From Escherichia coli (GTDB lineage Bacteria; Pseudomonadota; Gammaproteobacteria; Enterobacterales; Enterobacteriaceae), in the NCBI RefSeq assembly GCF_045037415.1, contig NZ_CP173438.1: 64,000 nt of DNA. One strand, written 5' to 3'. Of this stretch, positions 52,107-64,000 are shown one piece after another. The translations under genes and the position numbers were made by a program. The number at the start of each line of letters is the position of its first letter. Within the stretch, counting starts at the first letter, position 1. The notes beneath the pieces are model-generated. The model was given only the letters and a program-made list of their open reading frames with translations. It did not search any database and was not told the DNA's origin.

Positions 52107-52118
52107 TAACGTAGCATG

Positions 52119-52140
52119 AAACATAGCAAAGGCTATGTTT
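52119..52140 (+). promoter_or_regulatory. MntR operator palindrome in mntH promoter
   Basis: aaacatagc aaa ggctatgttt, near-perfect inverted repeat of the MntR-box type, 13 bp upstream of mntH ATG. Confidence 0.65.
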
Positions 52141-52143
52141 TAG

Positions 52144-53391
<1,248 letters not shown>

Positions 53392-53972: not shown

Positions 53973-55229
53973 CTAAACGTTATCGTGGGGTGGCTGTTGC
54001 TTCGGACGATTGACCATCATCATCGGCTTACCTGCTAATAACAGCCATGCCGGGAGCATGACGATACAGAGCAGCGGTAGCAATGTGGTATTGGGTACAA
54101 CGACTGCCGCCATAAAAAGACTTAACCAGCCATCACGTGTTACCACCAGCACGATGCCGAGAATAGCGCAGGAAACGGTTATTGCCGCTGGAACGGCGGG
54201 TACGTGCTCATGCAGCATCAACCCTAATGCCACGCCGACAAACACTGCCGGGAAGATTCGCCCACCGCGAAAGCCACTGGCGGCAGCAACGACCAGGGCG
54301 GCAAGTTTTATCACCGCCAGCAAAAAGTAATCGCTGGTGCTGAAAGCCTGATTTGCCACCATCTGCTGCATCTCATCCAGCCCTTTAAACAGCGAAACCG
54401 GTCCACCAATAACCCCCAGAATACCGAGAATAAATCCGCCAATACCCAGCACGAACACCGGATTTTTCATTTGATGCATCATCGCGTGCAACCGTGGTAA
54501 GCACCATACGGCGACCATCCCTGCTGCGATGGCAATCGCCGCGACAATTGCACCGCTGAGAATATCGGTCATTTCCATCTGTCCGTAATGCGCAATGGGC
54601 AGTGAAAAATGAGGATGGAAAAATAATCCGGTAGTAAGTGCACCAGCTGCTGCCGCCATTAACGGCGCAAAGAGACGATCCCATAGCGGAACTTCATTAC
54701 TGCCATTTAAGGTTTGCGAAAATATCAATGCCGCCGCAACAGGTGTGCCAAACAGCGCGCCGATGGTTCCGGCAGAGGCTAAAATAGTCCACTCCATTCG
54801 GTTGACGCGCGGTAACAGACGAGCGCCAATGGCGACGGCAAGGGCGATATTGACGGTCATGATCGGATGTTCCGGCCCCAGGCTGACGCCGCCAGCAAGA
54901 CCGAGAATTAATGCTACGATAAGTCCTGGTAGCGCAGAGGGCGGAACCGGTGCGCCGATCAGCGGTTCACAGGCGGGGTCTGGTCCGGCATGACCCTGGC
55001 TGAAACGGATAACCAACCCCACCGCAATACCCGTTAGCGTTAATACACCGATGATCCAGAGAGGTGAATCCTGGGCTATCCCCAGAGTTCCCGGCAGTCG
55101 TTGCCAGAGCAAATTCTGTAATACCGAGGCGATTTTCATCACCACAATCAGAATAAGACTGGACGCAATCCCAATTGCCACGGCGGGGAGCGATAATAAC
55201 AACATGGTTCTGGCTCGCGGATGGAGCAT
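53973..55229 (-). CDS. yfeO: ClC-family voltage-gated chloride channel-like protein YfeO
   Basis: 418 aa polytopic. Confidence 0.85.
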
Positions 55230-55432
55230 GTTCTATTCCTTATGCGGGGTCAGATACTTAGTTTGCCCAGCTTGCAAAAAGGCATCGCTGCAATTGGTGC
55301 TGAAACGATAAAGTAATTGTGTGACCCAGATCGATATTTACAGGGAGCCTGCCTTTCCGGCGTTGTTGTTATGCCCCCAGGTATTTACAGTGTGAGAAAG
55401 AATTATTTTGACTTTAGCGGAGCAGTTGAAGA

Positions 55433-56398
55433 ATGACAAAGTATGCATTAGTCGGTGATGTGGGCGGCACCAACGCACGTCTTGCTCTGTGTGATATTGC
55501 CAGTGGTGAAATCTCGCAGGCTAAGACCTATTCAGGGCTTGATTACCCCAGCCTCGAAGCGGTCATTCGCGTTTATCTTGAAGAACATAAGGTCGAGGTG
55601 AAAGACGGCTGTATTGCCATCGCTTGCCCAATTACCGGTGACTGGGTGGCAATGACCAACCATACCTGGGCGTTCTCAATTGCCGAAATGAAAAAGAATC
55701 TCGGTTTTAGCCATCTGGAAATTATTAACGATTTTACTGCTGTGTCGATGGCGATCCCGATGCTGAAAAAAGAGCATCTGATTCAGTTTGGTGGCGCAGA
55801 ACCGGTAGAAGGTAAGCCTATTGCGGTTTACGGTGCCGGAACAGGGCTTGGGGTTGCGCATCTGGTCCATGTCGATAAGCGTTGGGTAAGCTTGCCAGGA
55901 GAAGGCGGTCACGTTGATTTTGCGCCGAATAGTGAAGAAGAGGGCATTATCCTCGAAATATTGCGTGCGGAAATTGGTCATGTTTCGGCGGAACGCGTGC
56001 TTTCTGGCCCTGGGCTGGTGAATTTGTATCGCGCAATTGTTAAAGCCGACAACCGCCTGCCAGAAAATCTCAAGCCAAAAGATATTACCGAACGCGCGCT
56101 GGCTGACAGCTGCACCGATTGCCGCCGCGCGTTGTCGCTGTTTTGCGTCATTATGGGCCGTTTTGGCGGCAATCTGGCGCTCAATCTCGGGACATTTGGC
56201 GGCGTGTTTATTGCGGGTGGTATCGTGCCGCGCTTTCTTGAGTTCTTCAAAGCCTCTGGTTTCCGCGCCGCATTTGAAGATAAAGGGCGCTTTAAGGAAT
56301 ATGTCCATGATATTCCGGTATATCTCATCGTCCATGACAATCCGGGTCTTCTCGGTTCCGGTGCACATTTACGCCAGACCTTAGGTCACATTCTCTAA
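55433..56398 (+). CDS. glk: glucokinase
   Basis: 321 aa; N-terminal ATP-binding motif ([14 protein letters not shown]). Confidence 0.95.
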
Positions 56399-56410
56399 AT
56401 CCTTCCTGTT

Positions 56411-56444
56411 ATATCGGGAGGTAACTCTCCCGATAATCTTTTAA
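56411..56444 (+). terminator. intrinsic terminator downstream of glk
   Basis: atcgggag gtaact ctcccgat hairpin followed by T-rich tract. Confidence 0.55.
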
Positions 56445-56616
56445 ATCATACAGTTAATTAAATTTTTCTTTGTGTCCCCTCACAAGGCCGACCTGCGTCA
56501 CACTTCCGTACAGCGGGATTAATTCTCCAGTAAATGCATTATTTGTCTGGTAACGGCGATTTGTTTTGCACGTTCATAATTTCACTCGTCAACTATCACT
56601 GAACGAGGAATTAACG

Positions 56617-56943
56617 ATGAGTAAGAAACTGATTGCCTTATGTGCCTGCCCAATGGGCCTGGCTCACACTTTTATGGCCGCTCAGGCGCTGGAAGAAGCG
56701 GCGGTAGAAGCCGGTTATGAAGTGAAAATTGAAACCCAGGGCGCGGACGGTATCCAGAATCGCCTGACGGCGCAGGATATCGCCGAAGCGACCATCATCA
56801 TCCACTCCGTGGCAGTTACCCCGGAAGATAACGAGCGTTTCGAATCACGCGACGTTTATGAAATCACTTTGCAGGACGCAATTAAAAACGCTGCGGGAAT
56901 CATCAAAGAAATCGAAGAGATGATTGCCTCTGAACAACAGTAA
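56617..56943 (+). CDS. fryB: PTS fructose-like EIIB component
   Basis: 108 aa from internal ATG (MSKKLIALCACPMGLAHTFMAA...), EIIB cysteine motif. Confidence 0.85.
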   Translation: MSKKLIALCACPMGLAHTFMAAQALEEAAVEAGYEVKIETQGADGIQNRLTAQDIAEATIIIHSVAVTPEDNERFESRDVYEITLQDAIKNAAGIIKEIEEMIASEQQ

Positions 56944-56964
56944 TATTCGACAGGGATAATTGTT

Positions 56965-58212
56965 ATGGCCATTAAAAAACGCAGTGCAACCGTTGTGCAT
57001 GGCGCATCCGGTGCGGCAGCGGCAGTTAAGAATCCGCAGGCCTCTAAATCCAGCTTCTGGGGTGAACTCCCGCAGCATGTGATGTCAGGGATTTCACGCA
57101 TGGTGCCGACCTTAATTATGGGCGGTGTGATCCTCGCTTTCAGTCAGCTGATTGCTTATAGCTGGCTTAAAATTCCTGCTGATATCGGCATCATGGATGC
57201 TCTTAATAGCGGGAAATTCTCCGGTTTCGACCTCTCCTTACTTAAATTTGCCTGGCTGTCGCAGTCCTTCGGCGGCGTGTTGTTTGGTTTTGCAATTCCG
57301 ATGTTTGCTGCTTTTGTGGCGAACTCTATCGGTGGCAAACTGGCGTTCCCGGCTGGTTTTATCGGCGGCTTGATGTCTACCCAGCCGACGCAACTGCTGA
57401 ACTTCGATCCCAGCACTATGCAATGGGCGACCTCTTCGCCGGTGCCGTCCACCTTCATTGGTGCGCTGATTATTTCTATCGTTGCCGGTTACCTTGTGAA
57501 ATGGATGAACCAGAAAATCCAGTTACCGGATTTCCTGTTAGCGTTCAAAACCACATTTTTGCTACCGATTCTTTCCGCCATTTTTGTCATGCTGGCGATG
57601 TACTACGTCATCACCCCCTTTGGTGGCTGGATCAACGGCGGTATCCGTACCGTGCTGACCGCTGCAGGTGAGAAGGGCGCACTGATGTACGCAATGGGGA
57701 TCGCCGCGGCGACAGCAATCGACCTTGGTGGCCCGATCAACAAAGCGGCAGGTTTCGTTGCCTTCAGCTTTACCACTGACCACGTATTACCGGTCACTGC
57801 ACGTTCTATCGCTATCGTTATTCCGCCGATTGGTCTGGGTCTGGCGACCATTATTGACCGTCGTTTAACCGGCAAACGCTTGTTCAACGCCCAGCTTTAT
57901 CCGCAGGGTAAAACCGCCATGTTCCTGGCGTTTATGGGGATCAGTGAGGGTGCGATTCCGTTTGCACTGGAAAGCCCTATCACCGCCATTCCGTCGTATA
58001 TGGTCGGCGCGATTGTCGGCTCAACCGCCGCTGTCTGGCTGGGCGCAGTGCAATGGTTCCCGGAGTCCGCTATCTGGGCATGGCCGCTGGTCACTAACCT
58101 CGGCGTCTACATGGCGGGGATCGCGCTGGGGGCAGTCATAACTGCGCTGATGGTGGTGTTCCTGCGTCTGATGATGTTCCGTAAAGGCAAATTGTTAATC
58201 GATAGCCTGTAA
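56965..58212 (+). CDS. fryC: PTS fructose-like EIIC permease
   Basis: 415 aa polytopic. Confidence 0.85.
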
Positions 58213-58226
58213 GAAGGACAATCCTG

Positions 58227-59312
58227 ATGACATTACTCGCTTCGCTGCGCGACTGGCTTAAGGCGCAACAACTGGATGCGGTGCTTCTCTCCTCACGGCA
58301 GAACAAACAGCCGCATCTGGGGATCTCCACCGGATCAGGTTATGTGGTGATTAGCCGTGAAAGTGCGCACATTCTGGTGGATTCGCGCTATTACGCGGAT
58401 GTAGAAGCCCGCACGCAAGGTTACCAGCTGCATTTGCTCGACGCGATGCACACGCTTGCCACCATCGTCAGACAAATCATTGCCGATGAGCAGTTGCAAA
58501 CGCTCGGTTTTGAAGGCCAGCAGGTGAGTTGGGAAACCGCGCACCGCTGGCAGTCCGAACTCAATGCGAAACTGGTGAGCGCCACGCCGGATGTGCTGCG
58601 GCAAATCAAAACGCCAGAAGAGGTGGAGAAAATCCGCCTTGCCTGCGGGATTGCCGATCGTGGCGCAGAGCATATTCGCCGCTTTATTCAGGCGGGAATG
58701 AGCGAATGCGAGATAGCCGCTGAACTGGAGTGGTTTATGCGCCAGCAGGGCGCAGAAAAAGCCTCTTTTGACACCATTGTCGCCAGCGGCTGGCGTGGGG
58801 CGCTGCCGCACGGCAAAGCCAGCGACAAGATTGTTGCAGCGGGCGAGTTTGTCACTCTCGATTTCGGTGCGCTGTATCAGGGCTACTGCTCTGATATGAC
58901 GCGCACCTTGCTGGTGAATGGCGAAGGGGTGAGCGCCGAATCTCATCCGCTGTTTAACGTCTATCAGATTGTCCTGCAGGCACAGCTCGCGGCAATCTCT
59001 GTAATTCGCCCCGGCGTGCGCTGCCAGCAGGTTGACGATGCCGCGCGCCGCGTGATTACCGAGGCCGGTTATGGCAAGTTTTTCGGCCATAACACCGGTC
59101 ATGCTATCGGTATTGAAGTCCATGAAGAACCGCGTTTTTCACCGCGGGACACCACGACGCTACAGCCAGGTATGTTACTGACCGTGGAGCCAGGGATTTA
59201 TTTGCCAGGGCAAGGGGGCGTGCGCATCGAAGATGTCGTGCTGGTCACCCCGCAAGGCGCAGAAGTGCTCTACGCCGTGCCGAAAACAGTGTTGCTCACG
59301 GGAGAGGCATAA
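58227..59312 (+). CDS. ypdF: Xaa-Pro aminopeptidase (M24 family) YpdF
   Basis: 361 aa; pita-bread fold metal ligands region. Confidence 0.85.
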
Positions 59313-60349
59313 TGGATTTATCGCTCTTAAAAGCGTTGAGCGAGGCAGATGCGATCGCCTCCTCAGAACAGGAAGTACGGCAGATCCTGCGGGAAGAAGC
59401 GGATCGCCTGCAAAAAGAAGTGCGATTTGACGGCCTGGGATCGGTGCTGATCCGACTCAATGAGTCGACAGGTCCGAAGGTGATGATCTGTGCGCATATG
59501 GACGAAGTGGGATTTATGGTGCGCAGCATCTCCCGCGAAGGGGCGATCGATGTGTTGCCGGTTGGCAATGTACGCATGGCTGCCCGCCAGCTTCAGTCGG
59601 TGCGTATCACTACCCGTGAAGAGTGCAAAATTCCAGGCCTGCTTGACAGCGACCGGCAGGGGAATGACGTCAGCGCCATGCGCGTGGACATTGGCGCGCG
59701 CTCCTGTGACGAAGTGATGCAGGCAGGAATTCGTCCAGGCGATCGCGTCACCTTCGATACCACTTTTCAGGTTCTCCCTCACCAGCGGGTGATGGGGAAA
59801 GCCTTTGATGACCGCCTCGGTTGCTATCTGCTGGTGACGTTACTGCGTGAGCTGCACGACGCCGAACTGCCTGCGGAAGTGTGGCTGGTGGCAAGTTCCA
59901 GCGAAGAGGTGGGATTACGCGGCGGGCAAACTGCCACCCGCGCGGTGTCGCCGGATGTCGCCATTGTGCTTGATACTGCCTGCTGGGCGAAAAACTTTGA
60001 TTATGGCGCAGCTAACCATCGCCAGATTGGTAACGGGCCGATGCTGGTGTTAAGCGACAAGTCACTGATTGCGCCGCCAAAACTTACCGCCTGGATCGAA
60101 ACCGTGGCGGCAGAAATTGGCGTACCGTTGCAGTCAGATATGTTCAGCAATGGCGGCACGGACGGTGGGGCGGTGCACTTAACCGGCACTGGCGTACCCA
60201 CAGTGGTGATGGGGCCTGCAACCCGCCACGGACATTGCGCCGCATCGATTGCTGACTGCCGTGACATTTTGCAGATGGAGCAACTTTTATCTGCCCTTAT
60301 TCAACGTCTTACGCGTGAGACGGTTGTTCAACTGACGGATTTCAGATGA
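59312..60349 (+). CDS. ypdE: M42-family aminopeptidase YpdE
   Basis: 345 aa; start overlaps ypdF stop. Confidence 0.85.
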
Positions 60350-60373
60350 TCTCCTGATTAACCCGGAGCGGTT

Positions 60374-62869
60374 ATGTTAACGATTCAATTTCTCTGTCCT
60401 TTGCCTAACGGTCTACATGCTCGTCCGGCGTGGGAACTTAAAGAGCAGTGCAGCCAGTGGCAAAGCGAAATCACTTTTATTAACCATCGCCAGAACGCAA
60501 AGGCCGATGCGAAAAGCTCGCTGGCGCTGATTGGCACTGGCACTTTATTTAATGACAGTTGCAGCCTGAACATTAGCGGTAGCGATGAAGAGCAGGCGCG
60601 GCGAGTGCTGGAAGAGTATATCCAGGTGCGCTTTATCGACAGCGATAGCGTCCAGCCGACGCTGGCAGAACTGACGGCGCATCCGCTGCCGCGTTCATTA
60701 AGCCGCCTGAACCCGGATTTACTGTACGGCAACGTGCTGGCAAGCGGCGTTGGCGTGGGTACACTGACCCTGTTACAGAGCGACAGCCTCGACAGTTATC
60801 GGGTGATCCCTGCGAGTGCGCAAGATTCCACCCTACTGGAGCACAGTCTGGCAACGCTTGCCGAGCAACTGAACCAGCAATTGCGTGAGCGTGACGGCGA
60901 AAGCAAAACTATCCTCAGCGCCCATTTGTCGCTGATTCAGGATGATGAATTTGCAGGCAATATCCGTCACCTGATGGCAGAACAGCATCAGGGGCTGGGG
61001 GCGGCGATCATCAGCAATATGGAGCAGGTTTGTGCCAAACTTTCTGCTTCTGCCAGCGATTATCTGCGCGAGCGGGTCAGCGACATTCGCGATATCAGCG
61101 AACAGTTGCTGCATATCACCTGGCCGGAACTAAAACCGCGCAATAATCTGGTGCTTGAAAAACTGACCATTCTGGTGGCTGAAGATTTAACCCCAAGCCA
61201 GTTTTTGAGCCTCGATTTAAAAAATCTTGCGGGCATGATTCTGGAGAAAACCGGGCGCACCTCGCATACCCTGATCCTGGCCCGCGCTTCGGCGATCCCG
61301 GTACTGAGCGGACTGCCGCTGGATGCGATTGCCCGTTATGCCGGGCAACCTGCAGTGCTTGACGCCCAGTGCGGCGTGCTGGCGATTAACCCGAATGACG
61401 CGGTGAGCGGTTATTATCAGGTCGCGCAGACGCTGGCGGATAAACGCCAAAAACAACAGGCGCAAGCTGCCGCGCAGCTGGCCTATTCCCGTGATAACAA
61501 ACGTATTGATATTGCGGCGAATATTGGCACCGCTCTGGAAGCCCCAGGCGCGTTTGCTAACGGCGCGGAAGGCGTTGGGCTGTTTCGTACCGAAATGCTC
61601 TATATGGATCGCGACAGCGCGCCGGACGAGCAGGAACAGTTTGAAGCGTACCAGCAGGTGCTATTGGCGGCGGGCGACAAGCCGATTATCTTCCGCACGA
61701 TGGACATCGGTGGCGATAAAAGCATTCCTTACCTCAACATTCCCCAGGAAGAGAACCCGTTCCTCGGCTATCGCGCGGTACGTATTTACCCGGAATTTGC
61801 TGGCCTGTTCCGCACTCAATTGCGGGCGATTTTGCGCGCTGCCAGTTTCGGCAACGCCCAGTTGATGATCCCAATGGTCCACAGTCTCGATCAGATCTTA
61901 TGGGTGAAGGGTGAGATCCAAAAAGCGATCGTTGAGCTTAAGCGCGATGGCCTGCGTCATGCAGAGACGATTACGCTGGGTATCATGGTGGAAGTGCCGT
62001 CGGTGTGCTACATCATCGACCACTTCTGCGATGAGGTCGATTTCTTCAGTATCGGTTCTAACGATATGACCCAGTATCTGTATGCAGTCGATCGTAATAA
62101 CCCGCGCGTATCGCCGCTGTATAACCCGATTACGCCATCGTTCCTGCGCATGTTGCAGCAGATTGTTACCGCTGCGCATCAGCGCGGCAAATGGGTAGGT
62201 ATTTGCGGTGAACTGGGCGGTGAAAGTCGTTATCTGCCGCTACTGCTAGGGCTGGGGCTGGATGAGCTAAGCATGAGTAGCCCGCGTATTCCGGCAGTGA
62301 AAAGCCAGCTTCGTCAACTGGATAGCGAGGCGTGTCGGGAACTGGCGCGTCAGGCGTGCGAGTGCCGCAGCGCGCAGGAAATTGAAGCGTTACTTACCGC
62401 GTTTGCGCCGGAAGAAGACGTTCGCCCACTGCTGGCACTAGAGAATATCTTTGTTGATCAGTCCTTTAGTAATAAAGAGCAGGCGATCCAGTTCCTGTGC
62501 GGTAACCTCGGTGTTAACGGGCGTACTGAACATCCGTTCGAGCTGGAAGAAGATGTCTGGCAGCGGGAAGAGATTGTTACTACTGGCGTTGGTTTTGGCG
62601 TGGCGATCCCGCACACCAAATCACAGTGGATCCGTCATTCCAGTATCAGCATTGCCCGGTTGGTGAAACCGGTTGACTGGCAGTCAGAAATGGGCGAAGT
62701 CGAACTGGTGATCATGCTGACGCTGGGCGCTAACGAAGGGATGAATCATGTGAAAGTCTTCTCGCAGCTGGCGCGTAAACTGGTGAATAAAAACTTCCGC
62801 CAGTCGCTGTTTGCCGCGCAAGATGCACAAAGTATTCTGACGCTGCTGGAAACGGAATTAACCTTCTGA
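60374..62869 (+). CDS. fryA: PTS multiphosphoryl transfer protein FryA (HPr-like, EI-like and EIIA-Fru-like domains)
   Basis: 831 aa; N-terminal HPr-like (LHARPA), central EI-like, C-terminal EIIA. Confidence 0.85.
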   Translation: MLTIQFLCPLPNGLHARPAWELKEQCSQWQSEITFINHRQNAKADAKSSLALIGTGTLFNDSCSLNISGSDEEQARRVLEEYIQVRFIDSDSVQPTLAELTAHPLPRSLSRLNPDLLYGNVLASGVGVGTLTLLQSDSLDSYRVIPASAQDSTLLEHSLATLAEQLNQQLRERDGESKTILSAHLSLIQDDEFAGNIRHLMAEQHQGLGAAIISNMEQVCAKLSASASDYLRERVSDIRDISEQLLHITWPELKPRNNLVLEKLTILVAEDLTPSQFLSLDLKNLAGMILEKTGRTSHTLILARASAIPVLSGLPLDAIARYAGQPAVLDAQCGVLAINPNDAVSGYYQVAQTLADKRQKQQAQAAAQLAYSRDNKRIDIAANIGTALEAPGAFANGAEGVGLFRTEMLYMDRDSAPDEQEQFEAYQQVLLAAGDKPIIFRTMDIGGDKSIPYLNIPQEENPFLGYRAVRIYPEFAGLFRTQLRAILRAASFGNAQLMIPMVHSLDQILWVKGEIQKAIVELKRDGLRHAETITLGIMVEVPSVCYIIDHFCDEVDFFSIGSNDMTQYLYAVDRNNPRVSPLYNPITPSFLRMLQQIVTAAHQRGKWVGICGELGGESRYLPLLLGLGLDELSMSSPRIPAVKSQLRQLDSEACRELARQACECRSAQEIEALLTAFAPEEDVRPLLALENIFVDQSFSNKEQAIQFLCGNLGVNGRTEHPFELEEDVWQREEIVTTGVGFGVAIPHTKSQWIRHSSISIARLVKPVDWQSEMGEVELVIMLTLGANEGMNHVKVFSQLARKLVNKNFRQSLFAAQDAQSILTLLETELTF

Positions 62870-62871
62870 CG

Positions 62872-63729
62872 TTAGCCCTGAAAACGTGCGCTATACTCTC
62901 CCGGCGTCAGACCAAACTGACGCCGGAAAACGCGACAAAAATAGTCGCTATCCGGAAACCCGCAACGCTGCGCCACTTCATGAATCGACAGATGATATTT
63001 TTGCAAAATCATCCTCGCTTTTGCCATTCGTACCCAGCGAACATACTCGATAAAACGCATTGTTCCATGCTGAGCAAACAGTTTTGACAGATGATTTGGC
63101 GTGATATTAAAAAACTGCGCCACGCTCTCGCGGGTGAGCAGCTGGGCATAATTATCCTGAATCCAGTTACAAATGCTGTGATAGAGAAAATCGCCGCGCG
63201 GTTGCGAATTGCCCGGCGGCATATTCACCACGTTGCGGCAAAGATGCAGCAAACTTAACACCAGTGGCTGAATGATATTCTGCTCCAGCGGCGAACGGCT
63301 AAGATGGGTGAGGGCGGTAAGCATCGCTTCACCTTCACCGCGTTGCAGGCTGGGAAGCTGGATCTGGCGAGCAGGATGTAACAACGACGTGGTGCGGCTA
63401 TCGTAAAACGATAACCCAAGCCAGGTCGGTGCGAACACCAGGCTTAACAGCAGCACCGGTTTGTTGTTGACCGGTAAATTAGCCGCGCGTGCTGGAATAA
63501 ACAGCATTTCTCCTTCCACCATACGTTGCTGCTTTGCTTCCAGCAGATTGCCGTATTCGCCGCGTAGCACGATATCCAGACGGGGAAAATCAATACATAA
63601 ACTGCCCACTGGCAATGAGGTAGGCTGGCTGGCAAACCAGACGCGCCCCAGTAGTTGCGGGTTAAGCACCAGGCCGCTGAACAGATCGGCGAAAAATTGT
63701 TGATCGGCGGGCAAGCCTGGTGCTTTCAT
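62872..63729 (-). CDS. ypdC: AraC-family transcriptional regulator YpdC
   Basis: 285 aa; C-terminal AraC HTH; convergent with fryA (2-bp gap). Confidence 0.85.
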   Translation of the reverse strand: MKAPGLPADQQFFADLFSGLVLNPQLLGRVWFASQPTSLPVGSLCIDFPRLDIVLRGEYGNLLEAKQQRMVEGEMLFIPARAANLPVNNKPVLLLSLVFAPTWLGLSFYDSRTTSLLHPARQIQLPSLQRGEGEAMLTALTHLSRSPLEQNIIQPLVLSLLHLCRNVVNMPPGNSQPRGDFLYHSICNWIQDNYAQLLTRESVAQFFNITPNHLSKLFAQHGTMRFIEYVRWVRMAKARMILQKYHLSIHEVAQRCGFPDSDYFCRVFRRQFGLTPGEYSARFQG

Positions 63730-63741
63730 GAAAGTTCCCGA

Positions 63742-64000
63742 TTAAAGATGCATTAACTGGCGGAATTCTTTAACTTTGCTGCAGCTGACCGGCACTTCAA
63801 AATCCAGATCTTTCAGCCGCAGAATATAGGTGTTATTAAACCACGGTTCGATCTCGCGGATTTTGTTCAGATTGACACAAAATGAGCGATGGCAGCGGAA
63901 AAAATGCGACGGCGGCAGCTTGCTGCAAAACTCGGTAATGTTCATCGGCATTACGTAGGATTCACGCCGCGTATAGACAAAGGTCATTTTCTCATGCGCT
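63742..64000 (-). CDS. ypdB: LytTR-family response regulator YpdB, C-terminal part (N-terminus lies beyond window end)
   Basis: Open frame runs to the window edge; LytTR-like C-terminal sequence; synteny next to ypdC. Confidence 0.75.
   Translation of the reverse strand, partial: AHEKMTFVYTRRESYVMPMNITEFCSKLPPSHFFRCHRSFCVNLNKIREIEPWFNNTYILRLKDLDFEVPVSCSKVKEFRQLMHL

Follow-up and report, generated by a model that had tools for sequence, protein, structure and literature searches.

Comparative evidence on the fry operon of Escherichia coli, an orphan phosphotransferase system with two embedded aminopeptidases

Organisation of the fry locus

The window analysed here, a stretch of 64,000 nucleotides of Escherichia coli DNA (contig NZ_CP173438.1), contains the fryBC-ypdFE-fryA operon (56617-62869), which, together with the convergent gene ypdC, is an already known and named orphan operon of the phosphoenolpyruvate (PEP)-dependent phosphotransferase system (PTS); what is new in the present work is the comparative evidence. 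Gene calls were taken from an open reading frame (ORF) listing and from the RefSeq annotation of E. coli strain 4/1-1, which is 100 % identical across 56000-64000. The fry unit comprises:

56617-56943, plus strand: fryB, PTS enzyme IIB (EIIB), 108 aa, active-site Cys11 (ORF, RefSeq, Pfam PTS_IIB)
56965-58212, plus strand: fryC, PTS enzyme IIC (EIIC) permease, 415 aa, of a distinct EIIC clade (Pfam PTS_EIIC)
58227-59312, plus strand: ypdF, M24B (prolidase/aminopeptidase-P-like) metallopeptidase, 361 aa (Pfam Creatinase_N and Peptidase_M24; PDB 5CNX)
59312-60349, plus strand: ypdE, M42 (TET-type) aminopeptidase, 345 aa (Pfam Peptidase_M42; PDB 1YLO)
60374-62869, plus strand: fryA, fused multiphosphoryl transfer protein of HPr, enzyme I (EI), and enzyme IIA (EIIA), 831 aa (Pfam domain order)
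62872-63729, minus strand: ypdC, AraC-family regulator (HTH_18/HTH_AraC)

An earlier note on this DNA had named the five genes from fryB to fryA, placed them on one strand, and described them as tightly coupled, with ypdF and ypdE overlapping start on stop. The identities are borne out by the ORF listing, RefSeq, and Pfam, and the coupling by intergenic gaps of 21, 14, -1, and 24 nt (fryB/fryC/ypdF/ypdE/fryA, in that order), the ypdF stop and the ypdE start sharing one base (TAATG). Shine-Dalgarno-like purine runs are found at every start of the unit, terminator-like sites within it show no excess (11 versus 8.1 +/- 2.4 expected), and an Rfam scan of 55000-64000 returned zero RNA families. For fryB, the ATG at 56617 rather than the TTG at 56566 is taken as the start, because homology and the Shine-Dalgarno sequence begin there and the -10 box (see below) would lie inside the longer ORF. 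Although located outside 56617-62869, ypdC is part of the fry unit. It converges with fryA, the two stop codons being 2 nt apart (62867-62874) with no predicted terminator between them, and given these close ends the transcripts could overlap or interfere. As a matter of nomenclature, fryA carries the RefSeq/PGAP symbol 'ptsP', which is proper to the nitrogen-PTS enzyme I encoded elsewhere and could mislead automated analyses.

Phosphorelay proteins and permease

The domain order HPr-EI-EIIA, likewise given in the earlier note, is verified by Pfam, which places PTS-HPr (PF00381) at residues 6-84 of FryA, the EI domains PF05524, PF00391, and PF02896 across residues 119-650, and PTS_EIIA_2 (PF00359) at residues 687-826. 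The phosphorylation residues of FryA are intact, namely H15 (GLH15ARPA), H298 (GRTSH298T), C611 (C611GELG), and H747 (AIPH747). FryB matches PF02302 and has its phospho-cysteine, Cys11, in an ACPMG motif, and FryC matches PF02378 (PTS_EIIC); taken together, the fry proteins have the features of the PTS fructose-mannitol (Fru) family for EI, HPr, EIIA, EIIB, and EIIC alike. FryA, FryB, and FryC make up a complete and self-contained phosphorelay that runs from PEP via FryA-EI, FryA-HPr, FryA-EIIA, and Cys11 of FryB to FryC, and the earlier description of a complete private phosphorelay plus permease is in agreement with these domains and intact residues.

FryC is a member of a small and distinct EIIC family or clade. 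It shares only 27-29 % identity with FruA, FrwC, MngA, and FrvB of E. coli, barely passes TIGR01427 (157.6 bits versus a cutoff of 157.55), and lies far under every equivalog cutoff; of 1.84 billion cluster representatives, 970 match at E<=1e-3, a number that drops to 55 at E<=1e-30. In a neighbour-joining EIIC tree, a long branch connects the FryC clade to FruA, MngA, and FrwC. Orthology of FryC to MngA was considered and ruled out (27 % identity, position outside the MngA clade). Among the 80 loci described below, genes of the FryC clade adjoin GH38 or peptidase genes and never a gene for 1-phosphofructokinase.

The embedded aminopeptidases

YpdF combines PF01321 and PF00557 (Creatinase_N and the pita-bread domain), scores 810 bits on NF007310 against a cutoff of 393, and matches a solved structure (PDB 5CNX, 'Aminopeptidase YpdF'); its metal ligands D212, D223, H292, E321, and E335 are kept in 54 of 55 aligned sequences. 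YpdE matches PF05343 (286 bits), the equivalog NF007421 (677 bits, cutoff 412), and the solved structure PDB 1YLO, and its ligands H62, D64, D166/167, E198/199, D221, and H308 are kept in all 42 aligned sequences. Judged by these residues and matches, YpdF and YpdE are two catalytically intact cytoplasmic metallo-aminopeptidases. In terms of specificity, YpdE is reported to be a broad aminopeptidase that is blocked by proline, and YpdF is reported to cleave Xaa-Pro bonds. The aminopeptidase activity of YpdE has been characterised and a dodecamer reported, in a study that also stated the 'cellulase' annotations of M42 proteins to be wrong, these proteins being aminopeptidases with three representatives in E. 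coli (PMC3511314); a cellulase or glycosidase function of M42 is ruled out by this published enzymology. All three E. coli M42 genes (ypdE, frvX, and sgcX) sit within orphan PTS operons, which belong to two different PTS families, a pattern that points to some general connection of the PTS with M42 enzymes, as yet unexplained.

Related cassettes across species

Loci of the FryC clade were collected by an alignment scan of species-representative genomes, and the 80 species-level loci considered here, drawn from among the matches listed, are a pattern-biased sample of a set of at least 80. Directly after the EIIC gene, 61 of them have a YpdF-like M24 gene and 17 a GH38 alpha-mannosidase gene, two further loci being truncated by contig ends. 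Both kinds of gene share the same slot, beginning about 1.13-1.39 kb past the EIIC start. Loci with the M24 gene have a second peptidase gene, of either the YpdE-like M42 or the PepV-like M20 kind, and 23 of them additionally encode a PatB-family C-S lyase. The following types were distinguished by tblastn:

fry architecture, 36 loci: EIIB, EIIC, M24, M42, HPr-EI-EIIA fusion (Enterobacterales; a few contig-cut or frameshifted)
clostridial type, 14 loci: PRD/Mga regulator, EIIA, EIIB, EIIC, M24, M42, PatB
M20 type, 9 loci: PepV-like M20, regulator, EIIA, EIIB, EIIC, M24, PatB
Rahnella type, 4 loci: LacI regulator, M20, EIIB, EIIC, M24 (Rahnella)
GH38 type, 17 loci: EIIA, EIIB, EIIC, GH38 (Hungatella spp., Leptotrichia, Sebaldella, S. 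suis, BVAB1)

Examples of the clostridial type are found in Hungatella, Enterocloster, [Clostridium] asparagiforme, Breznakia, Caproiciproducens, Ruminococcaceae, Lachnospiraceae, and Thermoanaerobacterales, and of the M20 type in C. difficile, Geosporobacter, Caloramator, Pelosinus, and Lucifera. Most loci with fry architecture have an adjacent AraC-family gene, which is convergent except in a metagenome-assembled genome from the Enterobacterales (L047), where it lies upstream; this locus combines the fry architecture with PatB. The FryA-type HPr-EI-EIIA fusion and the AraC regulator YpdC are confined to loci from the Enterobacterales. Among NCBIfam equivalogs, the clostridial M42 proteins match YpdE best (393.5 bits versus 175.9 for the next-best, FrvX-type model) and the clostridial M24 proteins YpdF (352 bits versus 269.4 for archaeal PepQ). 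The pyridoxal phosphate (PLP)-dependent enzyme of the cassettes reaches 340-357 bits on TIGR04350 (PatB C-S lyase), about at the cutoff, and the M20 proteins show a weaker match to the Cys-Gly-3M3SH dipeptidase model, which ranks under PepV/Sapep and far below cutoff. The order EIIB-EIIC-M24-M42 is an ancient cassette that is common to E. coli, Clostridia, and other Firmicutes. Its fullest version seen lies on a metagenomic contig of low G+C content (L004), in the order RidA, alanine dehydrogenase, RpiR regulator, PTS, M24, M20, and PatB-like lyase. The PTS protein of this locus is a fused EIIA-EIIB-EIIC that is 54 % identical to FryC in phmmer (53 % in BLASTP), its EIIB part being 66 % identical to FryB.

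With respect to the transporter, GH38 and peptidase loci interleave on the EIIC tree, and the EIIC alignment lacks residues that would mark a type (144 of its 415 columns are conserved equally in the two types, with a single V/I column discriminating). FryC relatives at 58 %, 44 %, 43 %, and 39 % identity adjoin genes for GH38 alpha-mannosidases. The fry-type loci to which the Escherichia representatives belong were found to have no PatB-family gene within 7 kb of EIIC, and no gene for a SIS-type deglycase or an LmbE-type amidase was found in any fry-type cassette examined. AlaC, which is encoded nearby in the matching genome, was considered as an enterobacterial stand-in for PatB and rejected, its 21-23 % identity to the cassette PatB proteins corresponding to the same fold class only. 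Around the GH38- and Enterobacter-type loci lie unrelated genes (DcuC, RNase T2, GntR, lactate permease, ETF, racemase, sigma-54 activator), which gave no clue to a pathway.

The fryB upstream region and the regulator YpdC

On its upstream side, the fry unit is bounded by the intrinsic terminator of glk, and the region between this terminator and fryB contains several conserved elements, listed here with neighbouring genes:

55433-56398, plus strand: glk (ORF listing, RefSeq)
56412-56435, plus strand: intrinsic terminator of glk, upstream boundary of the fry unit (stem-loop search, repeat finder)
56488-56503, plus strand: conserved distal block CCGACCTGCGTCACAC, candidate activator site or weak CRP-like half site (alignment)
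56527-56554, plus strand: direct repeats CCAGTAAA / CTGGTAAC, candidate YpdC operator (alignment)
56575-56580, plus strand: -10 hexamer CATAAT of the putative fryB promoter (alignment)
from 63742, minus strand: ypdB, beyond ypdC (ORF listing, RefSeq)

The terminator lies 14 nt past the glk stop and consists of a 10-bp stem (perfect 9-nt arms according to the repeat finder), a 4-nt loop, and a T-rich tail. The conserved elements emerge from an alignment of 17 fryB upstream regions. In the distal block, GTCACA(C/T)TTC and CCGA are kept from Escherichia to Hafnia and Serratia. The direct repeats CCAGTAAA and CTGGTAAC, which are shorter than the repeat finder can detect, start 20 bp apart, abut the -35 position, and form the best-conserved non-coding block across the genera; such a layout resembles that of class II AraC-family sites. 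At -10, all 17 aligned genera have CATAAT or CATACT. A scan for the sigma-70 consensus upstream of fryB found no complete promoter, the -35 element being missing, and because a conserved -10 thus stands without a -35 or a complete sigma-70 match, the fryB promoter is read as activator-dependent. Going by synteny and the direct-repeat footprint, this promoter is most likely served by YpdC.

YpdC carries PF12833 and PF00165, with a C-terminal double helix-turn-helix, and its AlphaFold2 (AF2) model (mean predicted local distance difference test score, pLDDT, of 84) combines a beta-rich N-terminal domain with the AraC DNA-binding domain. A Foldseek search with this model retrieved Rns, CsvR, and ToxT over their full length and the regulatory domain of RhaR; these matches between an AF2 model and PDB folds span fatty-acid and sugar sensors and so do not reveal the class of ligand. 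The fry genes have ypdC as a neighbour in most of the 36 loci with fry architecture, be ypdAB present or not. In two Salmonella enterica loci (L026, subsp. diarizonae, and L028, subsp. arizonae), ypdC is followed by a 412-aa gene of alaC length, with no ypdA or ypdB between. Because ypdC occurs there without ypdA and ypdB, it seems to travel with fry and not with ypdAB, and YpdC is presumed to be a fry-specific regulator.

Further upstream in the window, RefSeq annotates a coding sequence of 19 codons (stop included) for a 'hypothetical protein' at about 52116-52172, which overlaps the mntH start and may be either a leader peptide or an annotation artefact.

Maintenance in E. coli and its relatives

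The stretch 56000-64000 is present (at least 80 % of its length) in 5414 of 5426 complete E. coli genomes. Relative to orthologues from Salmonella and Citrobacter, ratios of nonsynonymous to synonymous substitution rates (dN/dS) are 0.02-0.05 for fryB and fryC, 0.07 for ypdE and fryA, and 0.15 for ypdF, values that are approximate, dS being above 1 and saturated. These ratios argue that the fry genes are under strong purifying selection and not decaying. In four loci where ORF picking had missed ypdF, tblastn found the gene full-length and in a single frame, with no sign of pseudogenes. Two frameshifts were observed, one in ypdE of Escherichia sp. MOD1-EC7003 (L016, 12348-13300) and one in fryA of Citrobacter amalonaticus S646 (L024, 13411-15893), each of which may represent a pseudogene or an assembly error. 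A record titled Chryseobacterium sp. 18061 (L037) contains a complete Enterobacter-like fry locus with the full enterobacterial architecture and a FryC that is 74 % identical; this contig is probably contaminated or mislabelled.

A ypdE mutant of the uropathogenic E. coli strain UTI89 loses in competition in the mouse bladder (competitive index 0.30; PMC8767336), an in-frame fryA deletion results in better colony growth on lysogeny broth (LB) plates following prolonged culture in LB (PMC5364489), and overproduction of CpxR mildly raises ypdF and fryA (PMC2731931).

Within ypdE, one segment is polymorphic:

59519-59599, plus strand: polymorphic 81-bp ypdE segment (residues 70-96), full-length allele in this window

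Many YpdE proteins of E. coli and Shigella are 318 aa long and have an exact in-frame gap of 27 residues at positions 70-96, a region that lies in the PDZ-like dimerisation domain of M42 structures. The 81-bp segment is bordered by GTGCG direct repeats and was detected in 3695 of 5426 complete genomes, as compared to 5414 for the fry operon. The resulting deletion frequency of about a third of genomes denotes absence of the segment, and divergent alleles may escape detection. Because Salmonella and Enterobacter retain the segment, the deletion arose within Escherichia.

Proposed route and rival explanations

That the substrate of Fry is undefined, as the earlier note had stated, is supported by the literature: full-text searches found no substrate assignment for fry in the papers covered, and Fry continues to appear as 'fructose-like' in a review of 2023 (PMC10305011). 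The further suggestion of that note, namely that the peptidases act on an imported sugar-conjugated peptide, is strengthened by the synteny across phyla and by the exchange of GH38 and peptidase genes in one slot, and it is weakened by the lack of PatB, glycosidase, and deglycase genes in the E. coli operon; it remains unproven.

Since the slot after EIIC holds a glycosidase in the sister operons, as MngB follows MngA, YpdF and YpdE may likewise act on the imported, phosphorylated molecule, in which case this molecule would consist of a PTS-phosphorylatable sugar linked to an amino acid or a short peptide. Because the transporter is shared and undifferentiated between the types, a common head group with different aglycones is suggested, and because PatB has been recruited repeatedly, with RidA and alanine dehydrogenase added in L004, the last step would be a PLP-dependent beta-elimination. 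In the route that we propose, FryC would import and phosphorylate a small glycoside with a probably mannoside-like sugar head group and an amino acid or short peptide as aglycone. The broad YpdE and the Xaa-Pro-type YpdF would then trim the peptide portion and conceivably clear Pro-rich glycopeptide stubs, thus filling the role that GH38 has in the sister operons and MngB has for MngA. In Firmicutes, the PatB-family beta-lyase would probably eliminate the sugar phosphate from Cys or Ser to give pyruvate and ammonia, and the RidA and alanine dehydrogenase of L004 would fit the handling of 2-aminoacrylate and pyruvate following such an elimination. E. coli, without PatB in the operon, would need a finishing enzyme from elsewhere. 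In terms of evolution, the PRD regulator and the free EIIA would have been replaced in the Enterobacteriaceae by the AraC regulator and the HPr-EI-EIIA fusion, and PatB would have been lost, while expression would probably require YpdC and an inducer at the activator-type fryB promoter.

As a class of mechanism, i. e., PTS import of a sugar-amino acid or sugar-peptide glycoside followed by trimming, this reading of the gene context appears to us a serious possibility that falls somewhat short of being probable; any single substrate commands much less confidence. More tentatively, and with appreciable doubt, it is conceivable that the fry-type cassette represents an undescribed catabolic route in which glyco-amino acids or glycopeptides are imported by a PTS, stripped by aminopeptidases, and relieved of their sugar phosphate by a PLP enzyme. 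Example substrates would then be O-mannosyl-Ser/Thr(-Pro) and S-glycosyl-Cys fragments of host, yeast, or bacterial glycoproteins, and E. coli would have a truncated version with its own phosphorelay.

Several points weigh against the proposed import and trimming of a glycoside. All steps after import are deduced from the gene neighbourhood. Genes for a glycosidase, a deglycase, and PatB are missing from the E. coli operon, which leaves the fate of a trimmed sugar-phosphate-amino acid unexplained. The PTS substrates known to date are sugars and their derivatives, in the size range of mono- and disaccharides, and to our knowledge include no peptide conjugate. Zheng et al. are said to have found in 2005 that YpdE and YpdF cleave ordinary, unmodified peptides in vitro. 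In addition, the 80 loci are a pattern-biased sample of at least that many and the neighbour-joining tree is without support values, the 27-residue loss in about a third of E. coli suggests that YpdE is perhaps dispensable there, and a ChIP-exo study obtained no peaks for YpdC in the conditions it examined (PMC8464067).

Some of these points would be accounted for if Fry were an ordinary PTS for a fructose- or mannose-like sugar and YpdE and YpdF general peptide trimmers that merely share its regulation, which might, for instance, tie amino acid recycling to the supply of carbon. Besides the reported cleavage of plain peptides and the lack of an enzyme that splits a sugar-amino acid bond in the operon, the 'fructose-like' label of Fry in databases fits such a scenario, as does the general view of M42 TET peptidases as bulk peptide degraders (PMC3511314). 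However, the order EIIC-M24-(M42/M20) persists across phyla in 61 of 78 informative loci, which would not be expected from mere co-regulation, GH38 takes the exact slot of the peptidases, PatB has been recruited repeatedly, and FryC is just 27-29 % identical to the characterised Fru-family permeases of E. coli; we consider this explanation unlikely, if well worth keeping in sight. Slightly less likely again appears to be a sugar-amino acid conjugate other than an O- or S-glycoside, such as an aminoacyl-amino sugar (bacillithiol-like Cys-GlcN-malate), an Amadori or Heyns lysine peptide, for which FrlB-type deglycases encoded elsewhere would finish the pathway, or a collagen-type glycosyl-hydroxylysine peptide. 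The gene-context evidence applies to these conjugates as it does to glycosides. Moreover, aminopeptidases can in formal terms act on an N-terminal aminoacyl amide, the presence of PatB, RidA, and alanine dehydrogenase in L004 agrees with Cys being released and broken down, and the bladder fitness defect of the ypdE mutant would fit urinary glyco-amino acids. The alternation with GH38 and the lack of type-specific EIIC residues nevertheless favour a mannoside-like head group over GlcN or a fructosyl group, and neither a SIS-type deglycase nor an LmbE-type amidase is encoded in any cassette examined.

The remaining two explanations are less likely still. In E. coli, the operon could be a silent leftover, no longer in use, which has persisted by inertia and is slowly decaying, as might be read from the lack of a known inducing condition and of ChIP-exo peaks for YpdC, from the 27-aa deletion allele of YpdE in about a third of genomes, from the occasional frameshifts (ypdE in L016, fryA in L024), and from the absence of PatB relative to Firmicutes and L047. 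Presence of the locus in 5414 of 5426 genomes, five intact ORFs with their catalytic residues, dN/dS ratios of 0.02-0.15 (at saturated dS), a promoter footprint that is conserved across genera, and the in vivo fitness defect of the ypdE mutant (PMC8767336) make such decay highly improbable. A mainly sensory or regulatory phosphorelay, akin to the nitrogen PTS or engaged in cross-talk, in which the phosphorylation state of FryA controls other processes, is at least as improbable, perhaps marginally more so. The non-transporting PtsP-PtsO-PtsN phosphorelay of E. coli provides a precedent. No growth substrate is known, and deletion of fryA improves colony growth on LB (PMC5364489). Yet the operon contains a full membrane EIIC and an EIIB, whose genes are its most constrained ones (dN/dS 0.02-0.05), hydrolase genes come after EIIC, and the Firmicute cassettes rely on the general EI and HPr together with a PRD regulator that is typical of catabolic PTS operons.

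Comparison with known systems and significance

Among the characterised systems closest to the proposed import and trimming of a glycoside is the use of 2-O-alpha-mannosyl-D-glycerate by MngA and MngB, where a cytoplasmic hydrolase encoded directly behind a Fru-family enzyme II cleaves the phosphorylated conjugate after import. In the fry operon, ypdF begins 14 nt after fryC, and the 17 GH38 sister loci of the FryC clade share the layout. In contrast to mngAB, the fry slot is taken by two peptidases and not by GH38, fry has its own EI-HPr-EIIA, and FryC is 27 % identical to MngA; by this comparison, Fry may work like MngAB, but it is not a member of that system. The frvABXR (L002) and sgcXBCQAER (L003) operons of E. 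coli K-12 are, like fry, orphan PTS operons that embed an M42 gene (frvX and sgcX, respectively). The substrate of sgc was still unassigned in July 2026, and sgc is induced on nitrogen-containing poor carbon sources (PMC13343008). YpdE is, however, only 35 % identical to FrvX and 32 % to SgcX, both operons are without an M24 partner and without an EI-HPr of their own, and sgc uses galactitol-family components. The frw locus shares with fry the three-domain fusion (PtsA, 45 % identical to FryA) and a related EIIB (FrwB, 46 % identical to FryB), but it is linked to pflCD-type glycyl-radical enzyme genes, has no peptidases, and encodes a FrwC that is 29 % identical to FryC.

Breakdown of sugar-amino acid conjugates through a phosphorylated intermediate is known for the Amadori systems gfr of Salmonella, which operates via a PTS, and frl of E. 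coli. Both depend on SIS-domain deglycases and on a mannose-family PTS or kinases. Such a deglycase was not found in the fry-type cassettes examined, which sets these systems apart from fry. The thioalcohol (body-odour) pathway of Staphylococcus hominis proceeds via uptake by a peptide transporter rather than a PTS and is not known to involve a sugar or phosphorylation step. It comprises a dipeptidase and the PatB C-S lyase, and thus, similar to the Firmicute cassettes, peptidase trimming followed by a PatB-family beta-lyase acting on a cysteine conjugate (PMC11742315, PMC7385124). The E. coli fry operon differs from it in having no PatB.

Few multi-gene units of E. coli K-12 are, like the fry operon, near-universal in the species and yet without known substrate, inducer, or phenotype. 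The conserved, slot-equivalent peptidase partners in gut Clostridia, C. difficile, and Enterobacterales, frequently joined by a C-S/beta-lyase, lead to a short and testable list, i. e., glycosyl-Ser/Thr/Cys peptides and related conjugates. If the proposed route were true, Fry would be the first PTS shown to take up a peptide conjugate, which would widen the chemical range of PTS substrates. It would also explain the recurrence of M42 'aminopeptidase' genes in PTS operons and provide a role for YpdE and YpdF, and perhaps for FrvX and SgcX. As ypdE is a fitness gene in the mouse bladder model, such a function could, moreover, bear on nutrient foraging in the gut and the urinary tract.

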